In this document: positions 2,144 to 15,002 of the stretch, piece by piece
Layout of the letters: the number at the start of each line of letters is the position of its first letter
Position numbering within the stretch: position 1 is the first letter of the stretch
Source: Alphaproteobacteria bacterium
GTDB lineage: Bacteria; Pseudomonadota; Alphaproteobacteria; RF32; CAG-239
Reading direction: 5' to 3'
Assembly (NCBI GenBank): GCA_016288295.1
Contig: JAEEYV010000009.1
Location: 1-16,535 of the forward strand
DNA: 16,535 nt
Notes under the pieces: model-generated
The model's database searches: none
What the model was told of the DNA's origin: nothing
The model's input: only the letters and a program-made list of their open reading frames with translations
Translations under genes and position numbers: made by a program

Positions 2144-2699
2144 AGATCAAGTCAGTCGTAATCAAAGAATTCATATGCCCAGGAAGGTAGAAAACGTTTC
2201 GGGGCAATTAATGCTACCTGTGGATGTTGCTTCTGTGAAGCAAGCATTTGCAACAGCTAATGACAAACGATTTAAATATGCTGATGCGCTGGATCAAGCA
2301 ACCAAAGAAGATCCGGAATTGCATCAAATTTCAACAATTCCAAGCGATTCAAGCGAATTAATTGTTATAACGAAACTTAAAAAACTGGGGGCTTATATTC
2401 TAGCCGTGACGGTTAAATCGCCGGCCAAATTTAGACCTGTTTTTATCAATCGGATGCAAAATTACAGCTTGTCGGCTTTGGAAAATTTATTGAATGCTAA
2501 TTTTATTCGGATGGATAGCCCCGAACATAAAGCCCAGCGAGAAAAGCATCAAACGGATGCACTCATTCAGTTAAAAATGGTGGCATATGTTGCAATGCTG
2601 TCGGAAAATGCAAAGTGTATTTTGATGAGACAGTATAAACAAATATCCATTCAGGTTGGTGAAATTATTAACCTGATTATGGCATGGAAAAAAAAGTGA
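2136..2699 (+). CDS. avd: Avd-like DGR accessory variability determinant (four-helix-bundle protein) with an N-terminal extension; start uncertain (2136, 2175 or 2211)
   Basis: The C-terminal ~115 aa (LKKLGAYILAVTVKSPAKFRPVFINRMQNYSLSALENLLNAN ... ISIQVGEIINLIMAWKKK) shows the helical, basic Avd/bAvd pattern, including the terminal ...G.ml..W.k motif. It lies immediately 5' of the TR and upstream of a DGR RT, the canonical avd position. Confidence 0.65.
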   Translation: MRKDQVSRNQRIHMPRKVENVSGQLMLPVDVASVKQAFATANDKRFKYADALDQATKEDPELHQISTIPSDSSELIVITKLKKLGAYILAVTVKSPAKFRPVFINRMQNYSLSALENLLNANFIRMDSPEHKAQREKHQTDALIQLKMVAYVAMLSENAKCILMRQYKQISIQVGEIINLIMAWKKK

Positions 2700-2769
2700 T
2701 GATAAACAATGGCAAACAAAAAAGTTTTGAATCCGAAAGGGTCAAAAGAGGGAAAGTTGATAATGCGTA

Positions 2770-2890
2770 TTGTGCCTCTTGGTCCGCGTCTTCAAATGAA
2801 AATGAAAACGTGCGTTGCGTCAACTATAAGGGCGATAAGAACTGGAATAACACGAATAAACGTAAAATCTCGGCGCGCCCCGATTTGCTT
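2770..2890 (+). repeat. DGR template repeat (TR), 121 bp
   Basis: Aligns without gaps to 4396-4516 (offset +1626) with 101/121 identities. 16 of the 20 mismatches are at TR adenines. In the VR reading frame the TR carries 8 AAY (Asn) codons. It ends in a shared G/C-only core, GGCGCGCCCCG (2872-2882). Confidence 0.9.
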
Positions 2891-3143
2891 TTAAGGAGAA
2901 CAACAAAATGTGGTCGGCAAAGACACAGATCTCTGAAACAAGCCAGATATGTGGATTTTAGAAAAAATCCGCCCGTGCTTAAAGCAAAGGAAACTTTCTC
3001 TTTTCTAACCGCTGTCAGCTTAATGCTCAGTGCGGTGGAAGAAGTAAAAATGCAAAGTTTGCGTTTTATGGGGTATCACATATATTGACACGTCTTGTTT
3101 TAATATATTATCGGGTACCCCTTTTTTACAACAAAAGAGAACG
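2891..3143 (+). other. TR-RT spacer region of the DGR RNA (non-coding, structured)
   Basis: 253 nt between the TR and the RT start. Hairpin GGATTTT-AGAA-AAAATCC (2953-2970). Long hairpin GGGGTA..ATATATT / AATATAT..TACCCC (3070-3121) followed by T6 (3122-3127), 16 nt before the RT ATG. Confidence 0.5.
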
Positions 3144-4193
3144 ATGAAGATAGAAGAGATATTTACATTTGAAAACTTGGTTGCGGCCCACAAAGCATGT
3201 CGGCTGAGTAAGCAACATAAACGGGGAACAATCATGTTTGAAATTGAATTGGGGCGTAATGTCACCAATCTGGTCAAACAATTGACGGCTAGAACATATC
3301 GTTTAAGTCCTTACAGATCCTTTACCATTTATGATCCGAAGAAAAGATTAATTGAAGCGTTACCCTACAAAGACAGAGTGGTTTTAATGTGCTTTTGTCA
3401 GCATTCGGTAGCTCCCCGGCTAGAGAGACACCTGATTTATGACAATGCCGCTTCACGCAAAGAAAAAGGAACGCATTTTGCGGTAGAGAGATTGCATTCA
3501 TTTATGCGAAAGCTGTACATCAAAAACAAAACAAATCGGATTTATTTTTTGAAATGCGATATCAGGAAATATTTTCAAAGCATCAATCATGAGATTTTAT
3601 TGGAACTGTTGGCCAAGACCGGTTTTTCGGCTGATGAGATGTGGTTTTTAAGGATGATCATTGAATCACACGGTTCCATCGGGTTGCCTTTGGGTAATCA
3701 GACCAGCCAATGGTTTGCCTTGCTTTATTTGAACGGAATGGACCGGCTGATTAAAGAACGTTTGCGTATGTCCTGTTATGTGCGCTATATGGATGATTTT
3801 GTTGTCCTAAGCGAAGATAAAGCCAAATTACAGCTGTGTAGAAAGCAAATTGATGAATATGTCAAAGGATTAAAGCTGTCCTTAAATCAAAAGACACAAA
3901 TCGGGCTGTTATCGGATGGTATTGATTTTTTGGGATTTAACCACAAATTATCGGCCACCGGTAAGATTATCAAATCTTTGCGTGGATCGGCCAAAAGCCG
4001 CCAAAGAAAATACCTGAAAACCATCCGTCATTACTATTTGAATGATGTCCTGGATGATGAGTACCTAGACGTCCGTTTAGCCTCGTTTCGCGGGCATTTA
4101 AAGGGGACTAAGAACTGGATCCATATCAGCAACCGCTTGGCTTCCTTAAAACACGAGAAACGCCGTACAAAAAAAATTGTTGCAGAACAATAA
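3144..4193 (+). CDS. DGR-type reverse transcriptase
   Basis: 349 aa. The RT motifs include IYDPKKRLIEALPYKDRVV, the DGR-diagnostic motif-4 LGNQTSQ (aa 183-189, nt 3690-3710) followed by WFALLYLNGMD, and the catalytic YMDD (nt 3786-3797). There is no maturase/X or endonuclease domain and no retron-type motifs. A TR/VR pair flanks the gene. Confidence 0.9.
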   Translation: MKIEEIFTFENLVAAHKACRLSKQHKRGTIMFEIELGRNVTNLVKQLTARTYRLSPYRSFTIYDPKKRLIEALPYKDRVVLMCFCQHSVAPRLERHLIYDNAASRKEKGTHFAVERLHSFMRKLYIKNKTNRIYFLKCDIRKYFQSINHEILLELLAKTGFSADEMWFLRMIIESHGSIGLPLGNQTSQWFALLYLNGMDRLIKERLRMSCYVRYMDDFVVLSEDKAKLQLCRKQIDEYVKGLKLSLNQKTQIGLLSDGIDFLGFNHKLSATGKIIKSLRGSAKSRQRKYLKTIRHYYLNDVLDDEYLDVRLASFRGHLKGTKNWIHISNRLASLKHEKRRTKKIVAEQ

Positions 4194-4208
4194 ATTGTAT
4201 GATATACT
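4177..4208 (+). promoter_or_regulatory. possible extended -10 promoter in front of the target gene
   Basis: TGATATACT (4200-4208; TGn + TATACT) with a weak -35, TTGCAG (4180-4185), at 17-bp spacing. A strong RBS, AGGAGG (4227-4232), precedes the ATG at 4238. Confidence 0.3.
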
Positions 4209-4237
4209 GGGAGTATAAGCTAAATTAGGAGGTTCAT

Positions 4238-6187
4238 ATGGACTTTACGTTTTTGAAGGAAGATCAGATATGGGGCGATGATGCCCTGGATGTCATGAAA
4301 CGTTATGGCACGAAGGTTGCGCCAACGGATCTGACAGTCATATTGGGTGGTTATATGACCGGTGGTGGTGATCGTACTTCTGAAGATGATCTAACTTGTG
4401 CCTCTTGGTCCGCGTCTTCAAATGGGACTGGACGCGTGCGTTGCGTCAACTGTGAGGGCGATAAGAGCTGGGATAACACGGGGGAACGTGGAATCCTGGC
4501 GCGCCCCGCTTTGCCTCCATCGGAGGCATCTAAAATCAGCCCGAGCGAAGCGAGGGCTATCGCTGGAATCCGCGTAGCGGAATATGGGGAATACCCGCAA
4601 ACGGTCGCCGATGAACGCACCAGTGCAAAATTAGAAAGATTACATGATTCAAGATCTCTCCATCCGACCGGAAAAAATTACACATTTGATTCAGTTGGTT
4701 TAACCGATTATGACACGTCTTTTAAGGCCACATCCTATCAGGAATATGAAATGGATGGCAAAAGGTATATCCGCGTTCCTGGACGGCCTGCTGACGACGA
4801 TAGCAAGCTATCTACCGGGGAACAGGTAGAGTCCGGAAAACCCTACTGGGTTGAGGTCCAGCCGATAGAATGGCTGATGGATAGAAGCGGCACAATGGTC
4901 GCCAAAAAATGCTTATTCGCCGGTATTCAATTTGATACAAAGAGCTCATATGACGGTGACTTCTCTAAAACGTCCATGAAGCACTATTTGGACACTTATT
5001 TTGCCAAAGAAATGGAGCCGACCGGACGTGTAGCCGCAAGAACGGTATCAAGAGACTATGAAGAAGAGCCGGAAAGAAAAGAACCCGTTAAAAAGAAAGA
5101 ACCGACAGCCAGACAGAAGAAATACGGGATCAAGGTATCTGATGAGCCTATGCCCGTCAAGGACCAAATAAACTTCTATATTCAAAACGGAATGAGCTTC
5201 ATGCTCCATGGCCCGTCCGGTGTCGGTAAATCACAACGTGTGAAAGAAATTGATCCGGATTTGACCTCAATTACGCTGTGTAACGGAATTTTGCCTGAAG
5301 ATGTTATCGGTAAAACAATCTATCCAAACGGCGTGGGAGCCGATGGGGCCTCCGGTGGTGTTTGGGTGCCGCCTAAGTGGTACACGGATTTGTGCAGAAA
5401 ATGCGAAACAGAACCGGACAAACAGCACGTCTTGTTTATCGATGAAGTGACCAATGCGCGTGAAACAACACAAAGTTTGATCTATCACGTAGCGTTGGAA
5501 AAATCAATTGCCCAGGGCGTTGGCAAACTGCCTAATAATGCTGTGGTCGTGTTGGCCGGTAACAGCAAGGAAGAATCAGGAGCCGCTTATAACATGCCGG
5601 CCCCGTTGTTCAGACGTTTAAGCCATATTTACTTGGACTTGAATATTCAGGATTGGTTGGAATGGGGTTCAGAACACAGCAAGAGCCATCCGGAGGATCC
5701 GGATCGCTTAAACATCCATCCGTTAGTCGCCAGTTTTGTGGCAACCTACGGACGGCAAGTGTTCTATTCCGAGTATGATGAAGAAAACCCCGGTAAGTTT
5801 GCTCTTGACCCACGAAAATGGGAAAAGGTATCAGATAAAATCTATGCTAATAAGGGTGTGATGCGCCGTGAGATTTTGGAAGCTGATATCGGGCCTGAAT
5901 TGGCGGCCAGTTTATTGTCATATGCTAAAAATCCGCCGCTATCTTTGGAAGAAGTGATTGATGGCGAATATACCCGCGAGGATATTCCTACGGGGCAGGA
6001 TGCCCGTTTGGCGTTGGCGTTGAGTTTGCGTCATGCAACACCGAAACAAGTCGGGAAAGTACGTCAATTTGTTGAAACACAGTTAGGCGCAGAAAATCGT
6101 GCGATTTTTGACTCTGTTTGGGTGGGCAAGGATGATACACGCGCCATGCAGATCGCCACTCTACATAACTTAAAGGGAGGAAGATAA
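4238..6187 (+). CDS. DGR target protein: N-terminal variable ligand-binding-type domain fused to a MoxR/AAA_5-type ATPase
   Basis: 649 aa with no signal peptide or TM. The N-terminal ~270 aa contain the VR (aa 53-93). They also carry motifs resembling the W..RS...V...G....(V/A)RPAL and IEW..(L/M)D modules of DUF6273-like/lectin-like domains. The C-terminal half has Walker A GPSGVGKS (nt 5210-5233), Walker B VLFIDE (5429-5446) followed by VTNA (compare the MoxR DEINRA), sensor-1-like VVVLAGNS, and APLFRRL (compare MoxR ..LDRF). Confidence 0.85.
   Translation: MDFTFLKEDQIWGDDALDVMKRYGTKVAPTDLTVILGGYMTGGGDRTSEDDLTCASWSASSNGTGRVRCVNCEGDKSWDNTGERGILARPALPPSEASKISPSEARAIAGIRVAEYGEYPQTVADERTSAKLERLHDSRSLHPTGKNYTFDSVGLTDYDTSFKATSYQEYEMDGKRYIRVPGRPADDDSKLSTGEQVESGKPYWVEVQPIEWLMDRSGTMVAKKCLFAGIQFDTKSSYDGDFSKTSMKHYLDTYFAKEMEPTGRVAARTVSRDYEEEPERKEPVKKKEPTARQKKYGIKVSDEPMPVKDQINFYIQNGMSFMLHGPSGVGKSQRVKEIDPDLTSITLCNGILPEDVIGKTIYPNGVGADGASGGVWVPPKWYTDLCRKCETEPDKQHVLFIDEVTNARETTQSLIYHVALEKSIAQGVGKLPNNAVVVLAGNSKEESGAAYNMPAPLFRRLSHIYLDLNIQDWLEWGSEHSKSHPEDPDRLNIHPLVASFVATYGRQVFYSEYDEENPGKFALDPRKWEKVSDKIYANKGVMRREILEADIGPELAASLLSYAKNPPLSLEEVIDGEYTREDIPTGQDARLALALSLRHATPKQVGKVRQFVETQLGAENRAIFDSVWVGKDDTRAMQIATLHNLKGGR
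4396..4516 (+). repeat. DGR variable repeat (VR) inside the target gene
   Basis: Counterpart of TR 2770-2890. TR adenines are replaced by G (13 times) or C (3 times). It encodes ...CASWSASSNGTGRVRCVNCEGDKSWDNTGERGILARPAL..., versus the TR-frame ...CASWSASSNENENVRCVNYKGDKNWNNTNKRKISARPDL... Confidence 0.9.
4513..4527 (+). other. short GC-rich hairpin at the 3' boundary of the VR (candidate homing-enhancing hairpin)
   Basis: GCCTCC-ATC-GGAGGC is a perfect 6-bp stem with a 3-nt loop. It starts 5 nt after the G/C-only core GGCGCGCCCCG (4498-4508). It is absent from the TR side, where the sequence diverges after 2890. Confidence 0.5.
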
Positions 6188-6188
6188 A

Positions 6189-6659
6189 ATGTCATTAAAA
6201 GAAATGCTCGAAAAAAATCGGAAAAAACGCAAGAATGGCTTAGTCATCCAACCTGATATAGGATGGGCAGGACCGAAACCCGCCAAAACAAAGGCCGAAA
6301 AGATTAATCAAATCAAAACGGAATTTATTGATGACAGAGCTTTATTGATTGTCGGGGCTAAAGCCTCCGATTTTGCAGAATATCCGAAGATAGAGGCCAA
6401 TGTCTCAGTCCAAGACTTAATCAAGCACATCGAACAATTGGAATCTGTAAAACAAAGACTGAAAAAGAAGATGTTGCTTGTTATAACCGGGCTGGATAAG
6501 GTTTCGGCTGATGAACAGGCAAAATTCATTCCTCTCTTGAAGGATAGGCAAATTATGGCAAGTAAATTGCCTGATGCGGTTCAAATTGTTATGCCTGTTG
6601 CTGATGCTGATGCAGTTTCTCATGCAACAAAGTCACTCATTTTTGAATTGAAAGTATAA
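6189..6659 (+). CDS. hypothetical 156-aa protein, middle gene of the ATPase-vWA operon
   Basis: Strong RBS GGGAGGAAG. The start is 1 nt after the ATPase stop, and the stop is 2 nt before the next ATG. I recognise no motif; LLVITGLD...IVMPV vaguely recalls a degenerate P-loop-fold strand order. Basic N-terminus. Confidence 0.6.
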   Translation: MSLKEMLEKNRKKRKNGLVIQPDIGWAGPKPAKTKAEKINQIKTEFIDDRALLIVGAKASDFAEYPKIEANVSVQDLIKHIEQLESVKQRLKKKMLLVITGLDKVSADEQAKFIPLLKDRQIMASKLPDAVQIVMPVADADAVSHATKSLIFELKV

Positions 6660-6661
6660 TA

Positions 6662-8512
6662 ATGCCTAATATGGTCACAGAGCAACAGGAAGAAATTCAA
6701 TATATCAAAGAACAGGTTTTGGCCAAGTTCCCTTTGCTCGGTGTGACAATGCGGCCTTTATCGGTTGTTCCTGATGATAGAATTGGGACAGCGGCCACAG
6801 ATGGACATCGCATTATCTATTCTCCAAAGTTTTTTAGCACCTTATCGGATGAACAAAAGCAATTTGTCTTTGCGCATGAAGTGATGCATGTCGCTTTTAA
6901 CCATATTTTGCGCAGTAAGGGTCGTAATCAAAGGTTGTGGAATATCGCAACCGATTCTGTTATCAACCAAATTCTGAAAAATGAAAAATTGCCATTAACG
7001 GAAGGTGGTGTTGATATTGCAGAAGCTGTCAACCATTCGGCCGAGGAAATGTATGAAAAACTCTTGAAAAAGAAAGAACAGCGCGATCAGGAAAAGGGGC
7101 AAAATCAAGAGCAAGATCAACAACAGCAACAACAACAATCACAATCCGGTGGGGCGGACCAGCCTCAGGATCAGGATGCACAAAATCAGCCTGAACAGGA
7201 ACAACCTCAGGATCAAGACGGACAAAATCAATCCGGACAAGACCAGCCTCAGGATCAAGACGGGCAAAAGGGACAAGAACAATCCGATCAACAATCAGAC
7301 GGTTCGGAAAATCAAGATGAACAAAACAAAAATTCATCAGAAGGCTCGGAAGGATCCGAACAACAGAAAGATCAATCTCAAGATGGTGATTCAAACTCTG
7401 ATCAAAACAGTTCTTCAGGTCAGGGAGACGAGAATCAATCTGATTCAAATTCCGAACAATCAAGCGACAATCAACAGGGATCCTCTAAACCTCAAAAAGG
7501 TGGTCAACGTTCGCAATCCGGTTCTTCCTCTCAATCAGAAGACACCGACTGGGATGACAGCAATATCGATTGGGACAATGAAGATGAACAAGTAGGCCAC
7601 GATACACACGATATTTGGAAAGAAGCGGTTGAAGAGGCAGAACGTGAAGAACAACGGAAACAGGAACAAGCGAATAAGAAGAGTTTGTGGAATAGGCTGA
7701 AAGAAGCCATGGGGCAAAAAGAAGCTTCCGAGGGTCAAGGTGAACCTCAAGAAAAAGAAGCACCCGTGCCACAGGATGAAAACATGGATGCCTATGAAAA
7801 AGGCTTCTTGGCAGAAAATCAAGAAAAACGTCATGAGATGGCCGAACAGGTGCGCGAGCAATTAAACAGGATAAAAGGAAGCCTCCGTCAATCAAATGAT
7901 CATACCACAGTCGGGGATGTTGGGGAAACTCAAACGCCGGTGGTTGATTGGAAAAAAATGCTTAAAAAATCTTTCGATGAAGAGCGTGATCGTTGGTCCT
8001 ATCGTCGTTCCGGTTCTGAAAATGACTATATGGCCCGGGTGGAAGAATTGGAAGATGAAGGCCGTCCGGATACGGAAGTTATGTTGGATGTGAGCGGTTC
8101 TGTAAATATCCGCTTGTTACGTGAATTTTTAAGACAACTTAAACCGTTGCTTAAATCCTCTAAATTAAAGGTCGGTTGCTTTGATGAGTTTGTTTATGAC
8201 TTTAAGGAAATAAAGACTAAAGAGGATATTGACCATTTCCAAATTACGGCAAAATCTCAATGGACTGAAAACTGGGATGCGGCTGTCCGGGCATTTTCTA
8301 AGAAAAAAGAAGTGAATAAAATTATTTTTACAGACGGATATCCATGCCCAGGAACAATGCCTAAAGAAGATTTAAAGGGTAAGAATGTTATTTGGATAGT
8401 TTACGGAAATAAAGATTTTAATCCATGCTGTGGTAAAGTCATCCAGGTTTCCGAACGACAACTTCAGTCGTATATTCAGACGGCCGCTCCACTTTCTAGA
8501 GGTGGAAGATAA
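6662..8512 (+). CDS. DUF2201-type protein: N-terminal putative Zn-metallopeptidase domain, long disordered linker, C-terminal vWA-like domain
   Basis: ATDGHRIIYSPKFF....FVFAHEVMHVAFNHILR....WNIATDSVINQIL contains HExxH at nt 6875-6889, the pattern I associate with Pfam DUF2201_N. The C-terminus has the vWA MIDAS-like DVSGS (nt 8087-8101) and ...IIFTDGY. This is the typical partner of MoxR-class ATPases. Confidence 0.8.
   Translation: MPNMVTEQQEEIQYIKEQVLAKFPLLGVTMRPLSVVPDDRIGTAATDGHRIIYSPKFFSTLSDEQKQFVFAHEVMHVAFNHILRSKGRNQRLWNIATDSVINQILKNEKLPLTEGGVDIAEAVNHSAEEMYEKLLKKKEQRDQEKGQNQEQDQQQQQQQSQSGGADQPQDQDAQNQPEQEQPQDQDGQNQSGQDQPQDQDGQKGQEQSDQQSDGSENQDEQNKNSSEGSEGSEQQKDQSQDGDSNSDQNSSSGQGDENQSDSNSEQSSDNQQGSSKPQKGGQRSQSGSSSQSEDTDWDDSNIDWDNEDEQVGHDTHDIWKEAVEEAEREEQRKQEQANKKSLWNRLKEAMGQKEASEGQGEPQEKEAPVPQDENMDAYEKGFLAENQEKRHEMAEQVREQLNRIKGSLRQSNDHTTVGDVGETQTPVVDWKKMLKKSFDEERDRWSYRRSGSENDYMARVEELEDEGRPDTEVMLDVSGSVNIRLLREFLRQLKPLLKSSKLKVGCFDEFVYDFKEIKTKEDIDHFQITAKSQWTENWDAAVRAFSKKKEVNKIIFTDGYPCPGTMPKEDLKGKNVIWIVYGNKDFNPCCGKVIQVSERQLQSYIQTAAPLSRGGR
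7157..7270 (+). repeat. three imperfect 42-nt (14-aa) tandem repeats inside the disordered linker
   Basis: Units start at 7157, 7199 and 7241 (GACCAGCCTCAGGATCA(G/A)GA(T/C)G.ACAAAA...) and encode (D)QPQDQD(A/G)QNQ-type repeats. Confidence 0.7.
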
Positions 8513-8556: not shown

Positions 8557-11139
8557 TTAAGATAAATTAGCCTCAAAAATTTGATAAAGGTCAAATTCTA
8601 TACCGTCCACGCCTCTGATGAGGTCTATTTCGTCTTCAGCGGCAACATCAATTCGGGCCTGATCTAAAAACAAGCCTTCTTCTTTTCGTTTAAGCTCTTT
8701 TTCAGCGACATTTAGTTGCTTTTGAATACGCAACTCCGACAGTCTGTCTGAAGCGGTAGATATTGTTTCGCGTATTTTTTTAACCTCTTGCCTTGCCTCG
8801 GACAGATTCTGTTCCAATACAGATTTTTGGCGGCTGGCTTTTATTTTAATTAAATCAACATCCGTATCGAACTTTTTGGTATAATCATTTACATAACGTT
8901 CTTTAAGGTCGCGCTGGATGCGTGTATCTAACAAATCTCGCGATGAACCGCCAGTCGTTTTTAGCCAATACGGATTCCTCTTTTCTTCAGCTATAAATTC
9001 ACTAACCGGTTGATTGATAATTTTTTGGCATTCCTCATCAGTCATGAGCCGCCCATCAGGGGTCGTACCAACCAAAATGTCATACTCTGATAAATACTGA
9101 CGGCGGCGATTACGTAAGACGATGTTGTAGAACTTTATATTGCATTTCTCTGTCGGAGCAACGGTTTTAATGTCCGCTTTGTCAGAGCATGATATTTCCT
9201 GTAAAATACCACGAACAAGCACGGATGTTAAAGTGATGCGCCCCGCGGCCGGCTTAAAATCTTTACTCATTCCATAAGTCCTGCGACCGGTGTATGGCAC
9301 ATTTCTTGTGCCGGTGTAATAGTAAAACATGTGCGGCAATTCTTTGTCGTCCGGTAAAGTCAGCGTTTGATTGTAGTCATCGATCACATATTCCGGATGC
9401 TTTGTCGCAAAATAAAACTTCACAACTTCCCATAAATCTTTATTCAAGAACTCCGCTTGTTCCTCTATGTATTTTGGCGAAACGGACACTTTCTCGGCAA
9501 TATCTTTGGTAAAAGTGGTAAAGAGAGAACTTTCAGCCGCTGAAACAATGCGCTCATTCGGTTCGCGGTTTACTTCCAAGTTTGTTTCCATATCTGCGCG
9601 TATATCACTAAGCGTGCGGCGTTTTTGCAAAACATCTTCCAGTTTAACATCAAAATTACCGACAATATCGTCCGACATACCAAAAATGCCTTCAAATTGC
9701 AGGGTACGCTTGTTTATCAGCTCCAAAATACGGACATCCGAGATATTTTCTTTGCTTAAAAGATTGATAACTAAAACATCGGATTGCTGGCCTTGTCGGT
9801 GGCAACGACAGATACGCTGTTCCATTTCCACGGCGTTATAAAGTAAATCATAGTTAACCACAACTGGACAATATTCAATATCCAAGCCTTTGGCCATAGC
9901 ATCATTACAAATTAAAATTTGCAAATCTTTTTCTGCCCGAAAACGTGGCAGAGCATCATTTTCTGTATGCTTGATGACATTATATCCGGCGGTTTTAAGC
10001 AAATTTGCCAAAACTGGCACGGTGGCAAGATTATCCACGAACACAATCGCTTTTTGTGTTTCTTTACGCAATTTTAAGTGTGCAAATGTCGTTTTAATAG
10101 CTTTTAGAAATTCTTCCATTTTGGCGGTTTGCGTAATTTTTGCCGCCATATCGCGCATTGATTCCAAAATAACACGTTCATCGCCTTGTGTTCGCTCAAT
10201 AGGTGCTTCCAACATTGTGGCAAATGCTTGTGGTGATGAGGCCAAAATGTGGTAAAACATCAAAGTCAGTTGATAATTATCCATTTGCGGATAAGCCTGC
10301 TTTTCAGCTAAATTTAAGTATTTTTCGGTTAAATCATAAATTTTCTTTTCATCATCTTTTGGCACATAGTTCAAAACAATCGGTAAGCGACGTGTAAAGT
10401 TTACATACTGGCTCGCTTGGCTTTTAAGGGTACGAAAAGCGAATTGTGATACCCAATTTGATAGTTCTGGATAGTTTTCGGGCTTTCTGAAATACCGGCG
10501 ATAAAAACTGTCAGGATCCGGCAGAACGCTTTCATCAATAAAATGTATCAATCCGTAAATATCCATGATACTCATTGTGATCGGCGTTGGCGTTAAAAGC
10601 AGTTTGAAAGCATCGCCGACAGCACCCTTAATGGTTGCAACTGATTTATTGTCCGGCTTAAAAAGAAAATCAGCCTCATCAAACACGGCCAAATCCCAAC
10701 GAATGCTTTTGACTTCTTCTGCCTCACGGATAACATCATCGTATGTGACAAGGCAAATACCTTTACTATCGGCAGTATATTCGGCCCATTTGATAACCGG
10801 CAAGGTGAACTCTTCATCAAGTTTTTGTTGCCATTGTGCCATAAGGTTTTGGGGTAAAACAACCAATATATGTTCTTTTCCCTCGTACCAACGTTGAGCT
10901 ACTACAAGCAAAGCCTCATAAGTTTTACCGAGTGAGCCTTCATCACATAAAATGCAACCTTTAATCAACCTGGATCGCAGGGCAAAACGGGCCGCGGCTA
11001 TTTGATAAGGTAATACTTTAATTTTTGAAGAAGCATAAACCGCCAGTAAATTATCGTCATCGCGAAAACTGGCCAATCGTCTGGCTTCCACCATAGCGGC
11101 AAATTCGGATACAAAACGATACGGCTTAGTCTCTTCCAT
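8557..11139 (-). CDS. SNF2-family helicase/translocase with a long C-terminal extension ending in a coiled coil
   Basis: 860 aa. Motif I is LCDEGSLGKT, motif II is VFDEADFL, and the C-terminal helicase lobe has ...KGLDIEYCPVVVNYDL...EQRICRCHRQGQ (SNF2 motif VI). The C-terminal ~350 aa are unassigned, and the last ~100 aa are heptad-like and charged. The start is 3 nt downstream of the res stop. Confidence 0.85.
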   Translation of the reverse strand: MEETKPYRFVSEFAAMVEARRLASFRDDDNLLAVYASSKIKVLPYQIAAARFALRSRLIKGCILCDEGSLGKTYEALLVVAQRWYEGKEHILVVLPQNLMAQWQQKLDEEFTLPVIKWAEYTADSKGICLVTYDDVIREAEEVKSIRWDLAVFDEADFLFKPDNKSVATIKGAVGDAFKLLLTPTPITMSIMDIYGLIHFIDESVLPDPDSFYRRYFRKPENYPELSNWVSQFAFRTLKSQASQYVNFTRRLPIVLNYVPKDDEKKIYDLTEKYLNLAEKQAYPQMDNYQLTLMFYHILASSPQAFATMLEAPIERTQGDERVILESMRDMAAKITQTAKMEEFLKAIKTTFAHLKLRKETQKAIVFVDNLATVPVLANLLKTAGYNVIKHTENDALPRFRAEKDLQILICNDAMAKGLDIEYCPVVVNYDLLYNAVEMEQRICRCHRQGQQSDVLVINLLSKENISDVRILELINKRTLQFEGIFGMSDDIVGNFDVKLEDVLQKRRTLSDIRADMETNLEVNREPNERIVSAAESSLFTTFTKDIAEKVSVSPKYIEEQAEFLNKDLWEVVKFYFATKHPEYVIDDYNQTLTLPDDKELPHMFYYYTGTRNVPYTGRRTYGMSKDFKPAAGRITLTSVLVRGILQEISCSDKADIKTVAPTEKCNIKFYNIVLRNRRRQYLSEYDILVGTTPDGRLMTDEECQKIINQPVSEFIAEEKRNPYWLKTTGGSSRDLLDTRIQRDLKERYVNDYTKKFDTDVDLIKIKASRQKSVLEQNLSEARQEVKKIRETISTASDRLSELRIQKQLNVAEKELKRKEEGLFLDQARIDVAAEDEIDLIRGVDGIEFDLYQIFEANLS

Positions 11140-11142
11140 AAT

Positions 11143-14100
11143 TTACACCGTTTTCTTAAATTCCTGCCAATTTCTGACCGGCTGTTCGGAGTAGATAACA
11201 TTATCAAGAGCTTTGAAGTGCTGTGCACCGCAATGGATTTTTTGTTGTTCTTCCGGTCGCAGGCCATAGAACGAATCAGTTCCTTTGGTTTCAAGCACGA
11301 AATAAAGTTTCTGTTCGCCGTTTTTCTCTAAATAGACAGCCCAGTCCGGATTATAGGTTCCGATAGGTGTATCAATCTTAAACCGGCTTGGAATTTTAAA
11401 GAACATTTTAACGTCAGGATCCTCATCCAAAGCAACGGCAAACGGCTTTTCAACCGTGCTACTGTCATAAATAACATAGTCATAAACGCTGTTTTTAACC
11501 GCGACAGCATTACGATCAAGATTAGCAATCAATTCTTCGCTCGAGAAAATCTCTTGCACGGCATATTCTTCGCCGGCCAATTTAATATACTTAATTCCAT
11601 CAATGGCCAATGCATGACGATTGCGCTGGATGATCTCCAAAACCTTTTCGTAGAAGTCTTGTGGGTTTTTCAAAAAGTCTCCGGCCCGGCCGCTTTCTTG
11701 AATGATTTTATTCACGGTGGAACGTTTCAGCAATGTTTTGGTAGAGATTAAACGCAAAATATCCGGCAGAACATCATAGCTCTTTTCCAGGTTTTGGGTA
11801 AACATCGCACCGGCTTGGGCAGTTACGCCTGACTTTTGAATATCAACTGAGGCTGTCTGACTGAGTAAACGGGCCGAAGCAATCTCCGGCATTTCGCGAA
11901 TATCCTTGATACTATCGGCGATAAGCTTATCCAAATCAAACTGGACCCGATAAGTGGTCTTTTGCTTAATTTTATTCCACAACTCCATAAATTCAGGTGA
12001 TAACAGCGCACGTTTATTGAGTTTTACCGTTACATCCTTGGAGGCATCGCGGATGTTGAGCTTGTTATCAGCCTTGTTCATGGACTGTAAAATTGCACGT
12101 TGCGCGGCTTTTGACCAACGCTCGCTTAAATTGAGTGTACCGGCGGCAAGCTGTGCCTTCATGGTGTCTTTAATCTTGTTCTTGCTGTCAATAACCTTTT
12201 TATCTTTCAGCTCATCCATAATCGCGGCCGCTTCCTCATACGAAAAGGTCTTTTTCTCGACAACAGTTTCTTTATATGTTGTATTCGCAAGCGCGGCAAC
12301 CGATACCGGCTTTGAAGTTTTGATCATATCTTGAACATGTGTTTTGACCGGCTCCGGCATCGGGATGTTTTCGATTTTAATTTCTTCAGGTTTAACTTCC
12401 GGTTTAATGTAGCCGCCATCATCAATTAACCCATGCTTTTGTAAATCTTCCACAATAGCGGTGGCCTCACTCTCGCTGACCGTACGTTCAACTTCAACTT
12501 CTTCATCGTAAGAGTAGCCGACAAGCATATCCAATTCGAAAACGCCGAATTTAACACCGGTTTCATCTTCAATTTCTTTTTGCAGCTTATCAGCAAACTC
12601 GGCAAAACTTTCGTTGGCGATAACGTGCAAAACATTGATGTTCTTATCCTCAATCCGTTCTCCGTCCTGATTAACGCAAAGTCTTAAACCACGACCGATT
12701 TTTTGACGGCAGGTAAACAGCGATTTTTGCTCGATCAACGTGCAAACTTGGAAGACGTTCGGATTATCCCAACCTTCTTTTAACGCCGAGTGCGAGAAAA
12801 TAAAGCGGAGCGGACATTCAAACGACAACAGCCACTCTTTATCTTTCATAATGGTATTATAAGTGTCATCATCAGCCTGCGTGTCGCCTTTGGTATCCTT
12901 ATATTTACCTTTTTTATCCTGGGAGAAGTAGCCGTTATGCGCTTTATTTACATCCGTATCAAATTTGGTTTTCAAAATAGCATACTTCGGCTTATTGATC
13001 AGCTCGTTGTAGCATTCCTCAAACATTTCGGCATAAATACCTTTGCCACCATCCTCGGTGCGGTATTTTTTAACCTCATCAATAAAGAACAGGGACAGCA
13101 CCTTAATTCCCATATCAAAATAGCGCAATTCTTTATCAAGGTGCGTTTTAATGGTCTGATAAATTTGCGCACGTTTCAAAACTTTTTCATCAACGCTACC
13201 GATGGCTTTACCCAGGGCAACATATTCTGAGTTTGCAAATTCCACACCTTCAAGGCCTGATGTACAATCGATTCCCGAAACAACATAGCCTTCATAAATT
13301 TTGCGGTGACCGGATTTGATAAACAGATCATCGTCCGGTTTAACCGTTATAACCTTACGCGTAATATGGGCGTTGTCGTCTTCCACATCAATTTCCAGTT
13401 TGGCCGCAAAACCGTTGGCGTTTGAAACATCTTTTAAGGCGATATACGGCTTGTTCGAATCATTGATGACCGAGTTTGAAATGACACAAATTTGTTTTAC
13501 CAAGCCCATCTGATACGCATCAACCGGTGTTAAACGATAGACAAGATTCTGCTTTTCGCGGTGGGTGGCAGAATAACGTAAAACGCACAGCGGATTGAGC
13601 ATGGCGATGGCTTCCTTTGCCTTTGGTGTATTATCAACACTTTGTGGCTCATCAATAATCACAACCGGATTCGTGTCTTGGATATAGCGCATAGCGGTTT
13701 CGCCGTTCAGTTTATCCTGCTCTTGATTGATAATGTTTTCGGCCTTTTTGAAAGCATCGATGTTGATGATCATGATTTCAATATTGCTGGAAGTCGCAAA
13801 GGCTCGCACATCAGAGAGCTTGGCCGAATTATAAATAAAGTAGCGGTACGGTACGCCGTCATATTGATTTTTGAAGTATTCTTCCGTAACCTGAAACGAC
13901 TTGTTTACGCCCTCACGAATAGCCACGCTCGGTACAACAATAATAAACTTTGTAAAGCCGTAGCGGTGGTTAAGCTCCAAAATTGTCTTGGTATAAACGA
14001 AAGTTTTACCGGTTCCGGTTTCCATTTCGATTGAGAGCGGCACCGCCTTAATGCCGTCAATGTCGGTTTGCGGCAGAGAATGAGCCTTTTGGATTGCATG

Positions 14101-14301
14101 AAGATTGTTGTTTATAGTTTCCTCATCTAACACCAACTTGTTACCAAAACCGAATTCATTTTGCAAAAAAGAGGCTTGCGCGGAGTTATCAGCGATTGAA
14201 AAAGTCATATTTGCTTTTTCTTGGCCCTTGAATAACTCCACCGCCGCATTTGTGGCATCGGTTTGAAATTCTTGATTCTTAAACTTTAGTTTCATGCTCA
14301 T
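11143..14301 (-). CDS. res: Type III restriction endonuclease, Res subunit
   Basis: 1052 aa. The N-terminus M(SM)KLKFKNQEFQTDATNAAVELFKGQ is typical of Type III Res. Helicase motifs: METGTGKT, VIIDEPQS, EGWDNPNVF, GRGLR. The C-terminal PD-(D/E)xK nuclease appears as YNPDWAVYLE...LYFVLETKG. An alternative start at the third codon (14295) is possible. Confidence 0.9.
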   Translation of the reverse strand: MSMKLKFKNQEFQTDATNAAVELFKGQEKANMTFSIADNSAQASFLQNEFGFGNKLVLDEETINNNLHAIQKAHSLPQTDIDGIKAVPLSIEMETGTGKTFVYTKTILELNHRYGFTKFIIVVPSVAIREGVNKSFQVTEEYFKNQYDGVPYRYFIYNSAKLSDVRAFATSSNIEIMIINIDAFKKAENIINQEQDKLNGETAMRYIQDTNPVVIIDEPQSVDNTPKAKEAIAMLNPLCVLRYSATHREKQNLVYRLTPVDAYQMGLVKQICVISNSVINDSNKPYIALKDVSNANGFAAKLEIDVEDDNAHITRKVITVKPDDDLFIKSGHRKIYEGYVVSGIDCTSGLEGVEFANSEYVALGKAIGSVDEKVLKRAQIYQTIKTHLDKELRYFDMGIKVLSLFFIDEVKKYRTEDGGKGIYAEMFEECYNELINKPKYAILKTKFDTDVNKAHNGYFSQDKKGKYKDTKGDTQADDDTYNTIMKDKEWLLSFECPLRFIFSHSALKEGWDNPNVFQVCTLIEQKSLFTCRQKIGRGLRLCVNQDGERIEDKNINVLHVIANESFAEFADKLQKEIEDETGVKFGVFELDMLVGYSYDEEVEVERTVSESEATAIVEDLQKHGLIDDGGYIKPEVKPEEIKIENIPMPEPVKTHVQDMIKTSKPVSVAALANTTYKETVVEKKTFSYEEAAAIMDELKDKKVIDSKNKIKDTMKAQLAAGTLNLSERWSKAAQRAILQSMNKADNKLNIRDASKDVTVKLNKRALLSPEFMELWNKIKQKTTYRVQFDLDKLIADSIKDIREMPEIASARLLSQTASVDIQKSGVTAQAGAMFTQNLEKSYDVLPDILRLISTKTLLKRSTVNKIIQESGRAGDFLKNPQDFYEKVLEIIQRNRHALAIDGIKYIKLAGEEYAVQEIFSSEELIANLDRNAVAVKNSVYDYVIYDSSTVEKPFAVALDEDPDVKMFFKIPSRFKIDTPIGTYNPDWAVYLEKNGEQKLYFVLETKGTDSFYGLRPEEQQKIHCGAQHFKALDNVIYSEQPVRNWQEFKKTV

Positions 14302-14993
14302 TTACCTATTTTATAAATTACATATTTAATTTCAGGATTCGAAAACTGCTCCTTAAAGAAAGATTCCATTTTCTTGTCATTATTCACAACTTCTTTAGGC
14401 AATTGATTAAAATTTAATATTGTTTTATCCATCATGCCTACATCATTTATCAGAATACGATGACGCTTGTCTTCGTTCTTATTCCAGTAGAGGATCGCAT
14501 ACCTTATAGAGCCGGAAATAACCTCATTATCAAACGTAACGCTGTGCGTTGTAATGGTTTCCAACTTTTTCTTTTTTTTGATTTTACCAGTAAACGGGAT
14601 AAAAATCGTCTTTTCGGGAGTTTGAACTCTAAAATATATGTCTTTATGCATAGGGATTTCAGGCTCATAGGAGTATCTTTTCCCCATAATGTTATATGCA
14701 TGAAAAGGTTCCAACAAAAATGGCTCATCAAAAGTTTTTAGTGTCATTAGGTATTTATTGTTGAATACGACAGAGATGGCCGTAATCGTTTTCGGAGAGA
14801 GCGTTTTATTGAATATCGTGCAATGTAAACCACTCCCTTCAAAAGAATTATGATTTTCTCCGAAAGATGTTATTTTAAGATTTTTTGAAAAGTGGTAAAG
14901 CCAAAAGCCATAAGCAGTTAAAACAAATATCCCCAAATTACCAAGGATGGATGCTACTTTCTCAACAGTTTCCAAATTCAAAAAATCACACAT
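14298..14993 (-). CDS. hypothetical membrane-anchored protein inserted between mod and res
   Basis: 231 aa with a single N-terminal TM (ILGNLGIFVLTAYGFWLYHF) and no recognisable motif. Good RBS (GAGGTGGACG before the ATG). Its stop overlaps the res start (ATGA). Visibly more AT-rich than mod or res. Confidence 0.6.
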   Translation of the reverse strand: MCDFLNLETVEKVASILGNLGIFVLTAYGFWLYHFSKNLKITSFGENHNSFEGSGLHCTIFNKTLSPKTITAISVVFNNKYLMTLKTFDEPFLLEPFHAYNIMGKRYSYEPEIPMHKDIYFRVQTPEKTIFIPFTGKIKKKKKLETITTHSVTFDNEVISGSIRYAILYWNKNEDKRHRILINDVGMMDKTILNFNQLPKEVVNNDKKMESFFKEQFSNPEIKYVIYKIGK

Positions 14994-15002
14994 CGTCCAC
15001 CT

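Follow-up and report, generated by a model that had tools for sequence, protein, structure and literature searches.

A chromosomal diversity-generating retroelement with its variable repeat in the N-terminal module of a MoxR-class AAA+ ATPase from a gut alphaproteobacterium

The 16,535-nucleotide stretch of alphaproteobacterial DNA analysed here (contig JAEEYV010000009.1; hereafter, the window) carries a complete chromosomal diversity-generating retroelement (DGR) in the order avd-like gene, template repeat (TR), structured spacer, reverse transcriptase (RT), and target gene. The variable repeat (VR) falls in a confidently folded, unannotated module fused to a MoxR-class (CbbQ/NorQ-like) AAA+ ATPase. 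For a DGR, a cytoplasmic MoxR AAA+ ATPase that carries the VR N-terminally is a highly atypical target; it resembles a programmable intracellular sensor and not the usual surface or phage-tail protein. Taken as a whole, an active DGR with BPP-1-like diversification and a diversified ATPase–VWA receptor function is very probably the right explanation. The host, an alphaproteobacterium of the gut or rumen, is uncultured. The features of the locus are listed below.

2072–2100, + strand: candidate sigma-70-type promoter (TTGACT-17-TAAAAT), the best consensus match in the region (10/12)
2136–2699, + strand: Avd-like accessory gene, 187 aa (Pfam, NCBIfam, PHROG)
2770–2890, + strand: TR (direct-repeat search and alignment)
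2872–2888, + strand: IMH*, GGCGCGCCCCGATTTGC, at the 3′ end of the TR
2891–3143, + strand: non-coding TR–RT spacer (folding, conservation, covariation)
3144–4193, + strand: DGR reverse transcriptase, 349 aa (RVT_1, PDB, BPP-1 brt, PHROG)
4238–6187, + strand: target gene, 649 aa, with a strong AGGAGG ribosome-binding site upstream
4238–5023, + strand: N-terminal VR-bearing module of the target, aa 1–262, unannotated family (AF2)
4396–4516, + strand: VR, codons 54–93 of the target gene
4498–4514, + strand: IMH, GGCGCGCCCCGCTTTGC, at the 3′ end of the VR
4512–4528, + strand: candidate DNA hairpin TGCCTCC-ATC-GGAGGCA, predicted 7-bp stem
5150–6187, + strand: MoxR-class AAA+ ATPase domain of the target (Foldseek, PHROG, motifs)
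6189–6659, + strand: conserved small protein, 156 aa, between the ATPase and VWA genes
6662–8512, + strand: DUF2201 partner protein, 616 aa (Pfam, PHROG, motifs)

The Avd-like protein has a ~70-aa N-terminal extension followed by the Avd core (residues ~75–187). It matches Pfam bAvd (E 2e-5) and NCBIfam DivGenRetAVD (E 1e-4) over the full length of the profiles and below their curated cut-offs, as well as PHROG 3206, "Avd protein of DGR" (E 5e-10). A gene with 44–49% identity occupies the same position in the related loci L020 and L023. The candidate promoter lies upstream of avd; such sites are no commoner than in shuffled sequences. The spacer, which is presumably the 3′ part of the DGR RNA, has a folding z-score of −3.3 against shuffles and ends in a long hairpin with a U-tract (3070–3127). 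Long invariant blocks of the window's spacer recur in L020 and L023, though the RTs of these loci share only ~61% identity with that of the window. Of the 19 pairs in the terminal hairpin, 10 carry compensatory double changes and one is broken.

The RT ORF is intact and matches RVT_1 (E 1e-19) and PHROG 1423 (E 5e-93). Among solved structures, the 328-aa chain 8ub7 matches it best (E 6e-42), followed by a group II maturase (3e-14) and retron-type RTs (~1e-8). The first-pass annotation had named an RT outside the DGR clade as evidence against a DGR; the enzyme is nearest to BPP-1 bRT, far ahead of the group II and retron-type proteins. The annotation's claims on the cassette are borne out: an Avd-like gene 5′ of the TR, the RT motifs LGNQTSQ (3690–3710) and YMDD (3786–3797), and the order avd–TR–RT–target with the target downstream of the RT. 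The same is true of the repeats. The TR and VR, which form the sole long direct repeat found in the window by an independent repeat search, align without gaps at 101/121 identities, and all 20 mismatch positions were reproduced exactly. Sixteen of them are at TR adenines (13 A>G, 3 A>C, and no A>T) in a TR with 36 A and 85 non-A nucleotides (Fisher exact odds ratio 16.2, p = 4.4e-7), and a recount again gave eight AAY codons in the VR frame. The adenine-mutagenised part of the TR spans ~2794–2866.

The earlier reading of the repeat 3′ ends has to be corrected. Position 2883, which had been counted among the adenine-mutagenesis sites, is, like 2889 T>C, a fixed TR-versus-VR difference in every VR examined (10+ related VRs), and 2883 A>C is seen again in a system with a target only 52% identical; mutagenesis was therefore rejected for this site. 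Positions 2883 and 2889 are the IMH*/IMH marker, GGCGCGCCCCG[A/C]TTTGC[T/C]. The annotation had ascribed the 3′-end differences to the IMH, which holds for 2889 T>C and fails for 2870/2871 TC>CT. The latter change and 2857 T>G are private to the window's VR, being absent from every other VR examined, and are not IMH-related. The candidate hairpin overlaps the IMH end and the sequence just 3′ of it; its predicted stem is non-significant against shuffles, and the same sequence is present in 10 of the 13 related loci and altered in the rest. In the first 30 nt 3′ of the IMH, mean pairwise identity is 94%, compared with ~80% beyond.

The target protein consists of a 262-aa N-terminal variable module, a ~30-aa disordered linker, and the MoxR-type ATPase; no signal peptide or transmembrane segment is evident in it. 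Its AF2 model has a mean pLDDT of 85.9 with a low-confidence linker at 263–286, and 605 homologues of the target were found. The N-terminal module is modelled with a pLDDT of 96.9 and a pTM of 0.93. It has no match in the PDB (best E 0.09), no significant match in BFVD, and no Pfam hit at E ≤ 1 among 72 members, and a profile search with it yielded 2,858 cluster representatives. Structure, profile, and alignment comparisons revealed no tie between the VR-bearing fold and the C-type lectin fold. Stand-alone paralogues of the module are located between core genes, e.g., sufB, secDF, bamA, and dnaA. In the ATPase domain, Walker A (GPSGVGKS, 5210–5233) and Walker B (LFIDEV, 5432–5449) are intact. 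Foldseek matches it to CbbQ (6l1q, E 1e-9) and NorQ (9qh4, E 4e-9), including NorQ–NorD VWA complexes; PHROG 1297 ATPase was found with E 4e-37, and the AAA_5 and AAA_3 matches are weak.

Four TR codons (two AAG and two AAA) are able to mutate to stops, and a stop in the VR kills the whole protein because the VR is near the N-terminus. Thus, diversification also gives OFF alleles. In related assemblies, in-frame VR stops are present in L021 and L023, and a frameshift in L004. Where a metagenome assembly merges several VR variants into one consensus, stops and frameshifts of this kind may be artefactual.

[quoted passage not shown] The RT is 34.8% identical to Brt (E 8e-42), with the [I/L/V]GxxxSQ and YMDD motifs; the TR-to-VR changes are adenine-specific, GC-rich IMH/IMH* sequences lie at the repeat 3′ ends, and a candidate hairpin follows the VR. 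Unlike BPP-1, the window's element is chromosomal, in a gut alphaproteobacterium, its target sits downstream of the RT, and its VR occupies an N-terminal segment of a cytoplasmic AAA+ ATPase, whereas that of BPP-1 is at the C-terminus of the tail-fibre lectin. Because the VR is N-terminal and not C-terminal, the IMH and the hairpin are inside the coding sequence. Diversification would follow the BPP-1 paradigm: RT–Avd would bind the avd–TR–spacer RNA, cDNA synthesis would misincorporate opposite template adenines, and the GC-rich IMH (GGCGCGCCCCGCTTTGC) would direct the cDNA to take the place of the VR, with IMH* (A at 2883, T at 2889) shielding the TR.

DGR-linked MoxR-vWA (VMAP) ternary conflict systems are described from cyanobacteria, Thiohalocapsa, and other multicellular bacteria (Kaur et al. 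2020, PMC7159879; Doré et al. 2024, PMC10907252). Their diversified FGS/CLec domain is C-terminal, usually on the vWA component, and obeys a "strict syntax" with all other domains N-terminal to it. The window shares with them an operon of a DGR, a MoxR-class AAA+ ATPase, and a vWA protein, peptidase included, as well as conflict-system neighbours and a predicted cytoplasmic target, as in several of those cases. However, its variable module is N-terminal and fused to the ATPase itself, its vWA protein is a DUF2201 metallopeptidase–VWA fusion, and its hosts are gut Alphaproteobacteria MAGs plus some Clostridiales relatives. No VMAP, trypsin, caspase, TIR, or EAD domain was detected in the window with Pfam and PADLOC. 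With the lectin domain of the known systems placed at the C-terminus of their vWA protein, the arrangement in the window is a new variant.

An N-terminal variable lectin-like domain is also found in the "tentaclins", which belong to the DUF6273-type DGR targets of gut phages (PMC10743442; PMC11792537). These targets and the phage contig MT837771 (L030) share with the window the cassette order avd–TR–RT–target and, in the VR-encoded scaffold, the motif layout W-x-[ST]...V-x-V..G....R-P; this scaffold is the sole segment that aligns. DUF6273 matches span the module junctions in two tandem-module relatives; the window's own module does not match Pfam DUF6273, even after circular permutation, and Foldseek gave a non-significant match only. 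Moreover, this module precedes an AAA+ ATPase and not Ig domains, and it does not belong to a virion protein.

The DUF2201 partner gene is downstream of the target gene in all related operons. The partner comprises an N-terminal DUF2201_N metallopeptidase (E 2e-28; HExxH motif HEVMH, 6875–6889), a long, acidic/Q-rich linker of low complexity, and, at the C-terminus, a DUF2201 VWA-like domain (E 1e-6; MIDAS-like DVSGS, 8087–8101), and matches PHROG 1314 (E 3e-48). The small protein encoded between the two genes recurs at this position in all related operons (34–100% identity) and has no match in Pfam, NCBIfam, PADLOC, or PHROGs. No PADLOC model fits the target or either of the two proteins encoded after it. 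A type III R-M system and a DrmD-like SNF2 helicase are directly downstream in the window, Gabija GajA/GajB genes are ~5 kb from the L020 cassette, and toxin–antitoxin pairs adjoin L023; these neighbours are compatible with a conflict role. Some relatives, such as L022, are set among housekeeping genes.

By analogy with NorQ–NorD and CbbQ–CbbO, the ATPase hexamer may dock the VWA partner, so that six hypervariable N-terminal modules per hexamer could act as a diversifiable cytoplasmic ligand receptor. Its ligands would most plausibly be proteins of phages or other invaders, and ATP-driven remodelling would couple their binding to the VWA-metallopeptidase effector. The defence-sensor function suggested here for the diversified ATPase operon is a guilt-by-association proposal.

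An unlikely alternative is that the DGR is real and the ATPase–VWA–protease operon is prophage or GTA-like cargo serving that element, e.g., by excluding superinfecting phages, by countering defences, or by selectively degrading host factors. In L001 and L004, the cassette is just 3′ of minor-tail, J-like tail, and endolysin-like/lysis genes, and the window begins within the same endolysin-like gene. The matches of the AAA+ and DUF2201 proteins to PHROGs 1297 and 1314, the presence of this type of MoxR ATPase in many large phages, and the avd–TR–RT–target order of the closest DGR in the phage collection point the same way. However, none of the phage MoxR ATPases bears the N-terminal module, no close relative of the target was found in IMG/VR, and no DNA match to the window was found in phage and plasmid collections; the distant cassette members L020, L022, L023, and L024 are not beside phage structural genes.

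It is even less probable that the ATPase–VWA pair is a housekeeping maturation/chaperone system whose variable module adjusts which endogenous client or surface/cell–cell ligand is recognised. The nearest structural relatives, CbbQ and NorQ, are indeed enzyme-maturation factors, the L022 operon is surrounded by housekeeping genes, and module paralogues stand alone amid sufB, secDF, bamA, and dnaA. Nevertheless, an endogenous client does not call for ~20 hypervariable residues and strain-specific alleles, and a surface role would need a signal peptide, of which none is evident. The window's pair resembles NorQ–NorD and CbbQ–CbbO in having a VWA partner, here with a MIDAS-like DxSxS motif; those pairs lack a variable N-terminal module and a DGR, and NorD and CbbO have no metallopeptidase domain.

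The activity of the DGR was read from differences between assemblies of related gut and rumen Alphaproteobacteria MAGs. Their TRs differ by 0–1 nt (identical in L001 and L004, 1 nt off in L002 and L005), while every VR is distinct. With the two fixed IMH positions removed, the VR differences are all at TR adenines in L001 (22/22), L002 (23/23), and L014 (14/14), the heterogeneity expected in the first-pass annotation. Mismatches rise to 21 per 100 nt in the VR, compared with 0–6 elsewhere and 0 in the TR (TR versus L001), and protein alignments of close homologues show differences concentrated likewise at the VR. In RT-less, TR-less loci with the target operon, the VR is essentially static; the P0025 allele is unchanged on 42 contigs. 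RT and target homologues are often on shared contigs, and the cassette with the IMH A/C marker recurs in a lineage with targets 52% and RTs 61% identical. Since the TR is constant and the VR, differing in every RT-bearing relative, is rewritten almost only at TR adenines, these comparisons indicate that the DGR is active in nature. Together with the RT, the Avd-like gene, and the structured spacer, they uphold its initial identification as a bona fide DGR.

We doubt that the window's copy is a recently inactivated relic in which TR, RT, and VR are intact, retrohoming has stopped, and the VR is drifting. Its three non-adenine changes (T2857G and TC2870-1CT) are unique among the VRs examined, and the pooled spectrum (A>G 106, A>T 58, A>C 41) makes the absence of A>T from its 16 adenine changes unusual. 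Nevertheless, the RT ORF is intact with its catalytic YMDD, and Avd, TR, and spacer are 99–100% identical to those of L001 and L004, in both of which the VR departs from the TR at adenines alone; occasional non-A errors do not conflict with DGR activity. The three changes may reflect drift after the most recent homing. Finally, a plain gene-fragment duplication without reverse-transcription-mediated exchange, for which nothing more speaks than the existence of two 121-nt copies, has a negligible probability and is refuted by the cross-genome comparison, which shows an unchanging TR beside a hypervariable VR, as well as opposed by the adenine bias (p = 4e-7), the DGR-clade RT and Avd adjoining the repeats, and the same arrangement kept in distant lineages.

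A repeat search over the whole window revealed one long direct repeat, 2770–2888 versus 4396–4514. The gap-free alignment of the template repeat (TR) with the variable repeat (VR) claimed in the first-pass annotation was reproduced over 121 nt with 101/121 identities, and the 20 mismatches lie exactly where it had placed them. TR adenines account for 16 of the 20 (13 A>G, 3 A>C, and no A>T). Given a TR composition of 36 A and 85 non-A, the adenine enrichment of the mismatches has a Fisher exact p of 4.4e-7. Counting again also gave eight AAY codons in the TR, read in the frame of the VR-containing ORF. The cassette and its surroundings are arranged along the window as follows:

1–369, endolysin/transglycosylase-like gene; the window starts inside it
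864–1256, HU-family gene, between the structural module and the DGR
1596–2036, SLOG/YpsA-like gene, also between the structural module and the DGR
2136–2699, Avd-like gene
2770–2890, TR
3070–3127, long hairpin with a U6-7 tract, at the end of the TR–RT spacer and immediately before the RT start codon
3144–4193, reverse transcriptase (RT) gene
4238–6187, gene of the 649-aa target protein
4396–4516, VR
4512–4528, candidate 7-bp hairpin, overlapping the IMH end
6189–6659, gene of a small protein
6662–8512, gene of a DUF2201 protein
8557–16526, minus strand, directly downstream of the operon: DrmD-like SNF2 helicase (860 aa), then type III restriction endonuclease (res) and methyltransferase (mod)
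14298–14993, unannotated 231-aa gene between res and mod

Two of the mismatches, 2883 A>C and 2889 T>C, are common to all VRs examined, and the A/C marker of 2883 is seen again in a distant cassette, L020. Since both are present in every VR, they represent a fixed marker that distinguishes IMH from IMH* and are not products of mutagenesis. All VRs carry the IMH GGCGCGCCCCG[C]TTTGC[C], and all TRs carry the IMH* ...G[A]TTTGC[T]; the respective sequences are GGCGCGCCCCGCTTTGCC on the VR side and ...GATTTGCT on the TR side. The proposed connection of the 3'-end non-A differences with the IMH is correct for 2889 T>C but not for 2870/2871 TC>CT. The latter, together with 2857 T>G, is private to the window's VR, so that three substitutions are genuinely non-adenine. 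Either rare RT errors or drift after the last homing event may account for them. A 134-aa ORF (2684–3088), probably not a gene, crosses the TR in the VR's frame; its product would contain the 'CASWSASSNENENVRCVNYKGDKNWNNTNKRKISARPDLL' peptide in unmutated form.

Scanning a single genome for each species yielded 17 loci: 15 lie in MAGs of uncultured Alphaproteobacteria from gut or rumen, and the other two in a Clostridiales MAG. The same cassette as in the window was found in the loci L001, L002, L004, and L005, where the TRs differ by 0–1 nt and the VRs are all different. With the two fixed IMH positions left out, the VR differences are located at TR adenines in 22/22 cases in L001, 23/23 in L002, and 14/14 in L014. 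When the window was compared with L001 in 100-nt bins, 21 mismatches were observed in the VR bin, 0–6 in the other bins, and none in the TR. Among 38 close protein homologues (85–96% identical overall), codons with adenines in their TR version reach a column entropy of about 3 bits, compared with about 0 for the others. In one 90%-identity cluster, 24/34 VR columns vary versus 58/615 elsewhere, and no two full-length members share a VR. Two more metagenome contigs showed 23/24 and 25/29 mismatches at A. The expected heterogeneity of the VR at TR adenines in related genomes, with the TR constant, was therefore seen, including its directionality. The tests that the first-pass annotation had named as able to overturn the DGR reading were carried out, and none of them overturns it. 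In L020, where the target is 52% and the RT 61% identical, the gene order is as in the window, and 13/14 TR/VR mismatches are at A; judging by this shared order, the cassette arrangement is old.

A natural control for DGR dependence is provided by loci in which the target operon has no RT, Avd, or TR in its flanks (L024, 6269–8230, encoding P0025; L022; and L003). Their VRs are essentially fixed. Across 42 contigs the P0025 allele shows no change; its VR is thus static. A lookup of the window's exact target protein in the assembly index returned no record.

The ORF between the repeats encodes an RVT_1 reverse transcriptase, in which both the LGNQTSQ and the YMDD motifs were found. Among solved structures, chain 8ub7 ('Reverse transcriptase', 328 aa) matches it best (E 6e-42), ahead of a group II maturase (3e-14) and retron-type RTs (about 1e-8). 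[quoted passage not shown] From the chain length and the identity of the E-value and aligned range with those of the brt match, we infer that 8ub7 is the BPP-1 bRT; a literature search on '8UB7' for the identity of the entry found no paper. The RT is also similar to RTs of many DGR-bearing gut phages, and none of the NCBIfam group II, retron, and DRT models comes near its cut-off. In these similarity searches, both the motifs and the order of E-values (DGR RT ahead of group II and retron) place the RT in the DGR clade. The Avd-like gene reported 5' of the TR spans the full length of the bAvd, DivGenRetAVD, and PHROG 3206 models, its Pfam and NCBIfam matches being below the curated cut-offs; its position is kept in related cassettes.

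The TR/VR bias, the constant TR, the IMH/IMH* pair, the RT, and the Avd-like gene all support the earlier reading of a bona fide DGR; what is new is the atypical target. The element is almost certainly a DGR that is active now or was so recently. The diversification would be best explained by the standard mechanism according to the BPP-1 paradigm. Because the defining DGR features are present and the target is atypical, we regard the element as a bona fide DGR with a variant target system.

In the BPP-1 paradigm, DGR RNAs need a structured spacer. The folding stability of the 253-nt TR–RT spacer is above that of shuffled sequences (z = −3.3), and its long invariant blocks are kept in L020 and L023, where the RTs are only about 61% identical. 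The hairpin at 3070–3127 has equivalents in L005, L020, and L023, with compensatory double changes at 10/19 base pairs, as seen in three lineages only. Such a folded and covarying spacer fits the requirement of the BPP-1 paradigm. The U-tract suggests a terminator or attenuator ahead of the RT gene, and the hairpin as a whole looks like either a conserved terminator/attenuator or the structure that closes the DGR RNA at its 3' end. A scan of the window with Rfam at the gathering threshold gave no match. The hairpin at 4512–4528 is a candidate counterpart, by analogy, of the target-site hairpin of BPP-1. It does not differ statistically from shuffles, its conservation is confounded by coding, and the gap-free conservation profile 3' of the IMH is blurred by indels past about 180 nt. 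A 30-mer consisting of the IMH and this hairpin was present on only four contigs when scanned against metagenomes.

In the usual DGR layout, the VR is located in a C-terminal lectin fold, mostly of surface or virion proteins. C-terminal placement is described as near-universal (PMC8144416), and N-terminal VRs are documented but rare (3/372, PMC5758913). The target family of the window departs from this layout in three ways. First, the VR is near-N-terminal, occupying residues 54–93 of the 649-aa protein; as a result, the cis-acting IMH and the candidate hairpin must double as coding sequence. Second, the VR lies inside a module that is predicted to fold with confidence and to which nothing in Pfam, PDB, or BFVD is recognisably related. 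AlphaFold2 modelling indicated a folded N-terminal module (N-module, residues 1–262), a disordered linker (263–286), and a C-terminal AAA+ domain; modelled alone, the N-module reached a pLDDT of 96.9 and a pTM of 0.93. No Pfam match at E<=1 was found for any of 72 family members, the best Foldseek match in PDB (E 0.09) is not significant, and the Foldseek search of BFVD gave no significant match. C-terminal display of the VR on a C-type-lectin or Ig-like fold, which is typical of DGRs but does not define them, is therefore not seen here, given the N-terminal VR and a module without PDB, BFVD, or Pfam matches. Third, the ATP-driven motor to which the module is fused belongs to an intracellular MoxR-VWA-protease operon. 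Foldseek pairs the C-terminal domain (5150–6187) with CbbQ and NorQ, both MoxR-class ATPases, also in NorQ–NorD VWA complexes; the domain's Walker A and Walker B motifs are intact.

A profile search with the N-module revealed 2,858 cluster representatives at 50% clustering (listed members P0241–P0386). Many of them are stand-alone proteins of 270–400 aa; others contain the module in tandem or joined to ankyrin, MORN, DUF4116, or AAA+ domains. A search of IMG/VR with the window's target found two remote AAA-domain matches and no close relative, nothing matched in a tblastn search of phages with a junction segment, and the annotated neighbourhood of the MoxR ATPase of phage GAP31 gave no clue to function.

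The closest DGR in the collection of isolated and uncultured phages is L030 (MT837771.1, 3425–6065). Its RT is 41% identical, and the avd-TR-RT-target order is the same. Its target, located beside tail genes, belongs to the canonical DUF6273 proteins and has the VR at its C-terminus (TR 3854–3955, VR 5844–5945). DUF6273 is the lectin-like domain of gut-phage DGR targets (PMC10743442, PMC11792537). It has no match at E<=1 in the window's module and 71 relatives. In two tandem-module relatives, P0243 and P0248, DUF6273 matches bridge the junction from the end of one module to the start of the next (26 and 21 bits). An hhalign comparison of the N-module with the DUF6273 target aligned only the 36-residue VR scaffolds, weakly (E 0.001–0.01, probability 4–19%). 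The VR motif layout, the junction-bridging matches, and the alignment of exactly the two VR scaffolds suggest, with weak statistics, a link between the N-module and DUF6273. The idea that the N-module is a circular permutant of DUF6273 remains an unproven lead: the permuted sequences have no Pfam match, and hhalign stops at the VR scaffold.

In every relative examined, the target gene is followed by the genes of a conserved small protein and a DUF2201 protein. The small protein (156 aa) has no match in Pfam, NCBIfam, PADLOC, or PHROGs. In the DUF2201 protein, a low-complexity linker separates an HExxH metallopeptidase domain from a VWA domain that carries DxSxS (DVSGS). Its linker is encoded by imperfect 42-nt tandem repeats (7096–7281) that give a Q/D/E/S-rich stretch between the metallopeptidase and the VWA domain. 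This middle part, variable in length, is the only region of the protein that is not conserved among relatives.

DGR-diversified MoxR-vWA conflict systems are already known (PMC7159879, PMC10907252). The window shares with these ternary (VMAP) systems a MoxR-class AAA+ ATPase (CbbQ/NorQ matches, Walker A/B) and a vWA component in the operon (the DUF2201 VWA-like domain with DVSGS). [quoted passage not shown] In VMAP systems, the diversified FGS/CLec lectin domain is C-terminal on the vWA protein, whereas here the VR is N-terminal on the ATPase and the vWA protein has no VR. Moreover, VMAP systems have VMAP, trypsin, or caspase components and are found in multicellular bacteria, and neither holds for the window. 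The idea of hypermutated antigen sensors in conflict systems, developed for multicellular cyanobacteria and purple sulfur bacteria, would thus be extended to ordinary Alphaproteobacteria of the gut.

Since the VR lies near the N-terminus, a mutation to a stop codon knocks out the whole protein. Four TR codons are stop-prone, namely two AAG (residues 73 and 76) and two AAA (residues 83 and 85). In-frame stops within the VR were found in L021 (~7980) and L023 (~6630), and a frameshift in the VR of L004 (10159–10279); in all three, the whole ATPase is truncated after about 60–85 residues. About one sixth of the listed homologues are called with a start at or past the VR. These alleles may be OFF forms made by the DGR, or they may have arisen as artefacts of assembly. 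If the stops are real, diversification also makes null alleles of the whole ATPase.

The DGR probably serves several targets in trans, as unlinked VR genes match one TR. L014 (1–954), from the same MAG as L001 and unlinked to its cassette, contains a second VR gene. The product is an N-module on its own, extended by a lysine-rich tail, and the VR of this gene departs from the TR only at adenines. Stand-alone paralogues of this type, 293–360 aa in length and with a lysine-rich tail, occur in L014, L009, L011, L012, L015, and L017. Core genes flank them, also in MAGs other than that of L001 (sufB/M23 peptidase and yajC-secDF; cdsA-rseP-bamA and dnaA), and their VRs match the same TR with mismatches mainly at adenines. 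By sequence, they are probable remote DGR targets.

Regarding function, a hexameric MoxR motor would display six hypervariable cytoplasmic receptor modules, and ligand binding would couple to the VWA-metallopeptidase partner. This receptor–motor model derives from the domain content, the NorQ–NorD and CbbQ–CbbO analogies, and the neighbouring defence genes. The diversified module could be a sensor in a conflict system, a reading to which we give somewhat less than even weight. It is more speculative that the unannotated N-module (about 2,900 representatives) is a widespread DGR-programmable cytoplasmic receptor, here placed on a MoxR AAA+ motor driving a VWA-metallopeptidase. The whole would form a diversifying 'recognise-and-proteolyse' (or recognise-and-trigger) immune device of unicellular gut bacteria, with stochastic ON/OFF switching via VR stops and one TR serving several unlinked stand-alone paralogues. 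Being compact (three genes plus the DGR), the system is easy to test, and its short, well-defined TR together with the natural ON, OFF, and static alleles makes it transferable to a model host to ask what the receptor's ligand is.

In L001 (1–6134) and L004 (1–6459), minor-tail and J-like tail genes precede the endolysin-like gene upstream of the cassette, which thus abuts a prophage- or GTA-like structural module. We consider it unlikely that the role of the target system is tied to a prophage. The cassette DNA had no match among isolated phages and plasmids. The neighbours of the operon differ between loci. In L020, a Gabija pair that looks complete (15471–17977; GajB E 1e-114; GajA E 3e-91, with the end of the locus falling within GajA) is located about 5 kb downstream of the cassette. 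L023 has toxin–antitoxin pairs as neighbours, and L022 has housekeeping genes. When the window is compared with L001 and L004, mod is only about 60% identical and res 92–99%; this divergence of mod despite the identity of res suggests specificity swapping.
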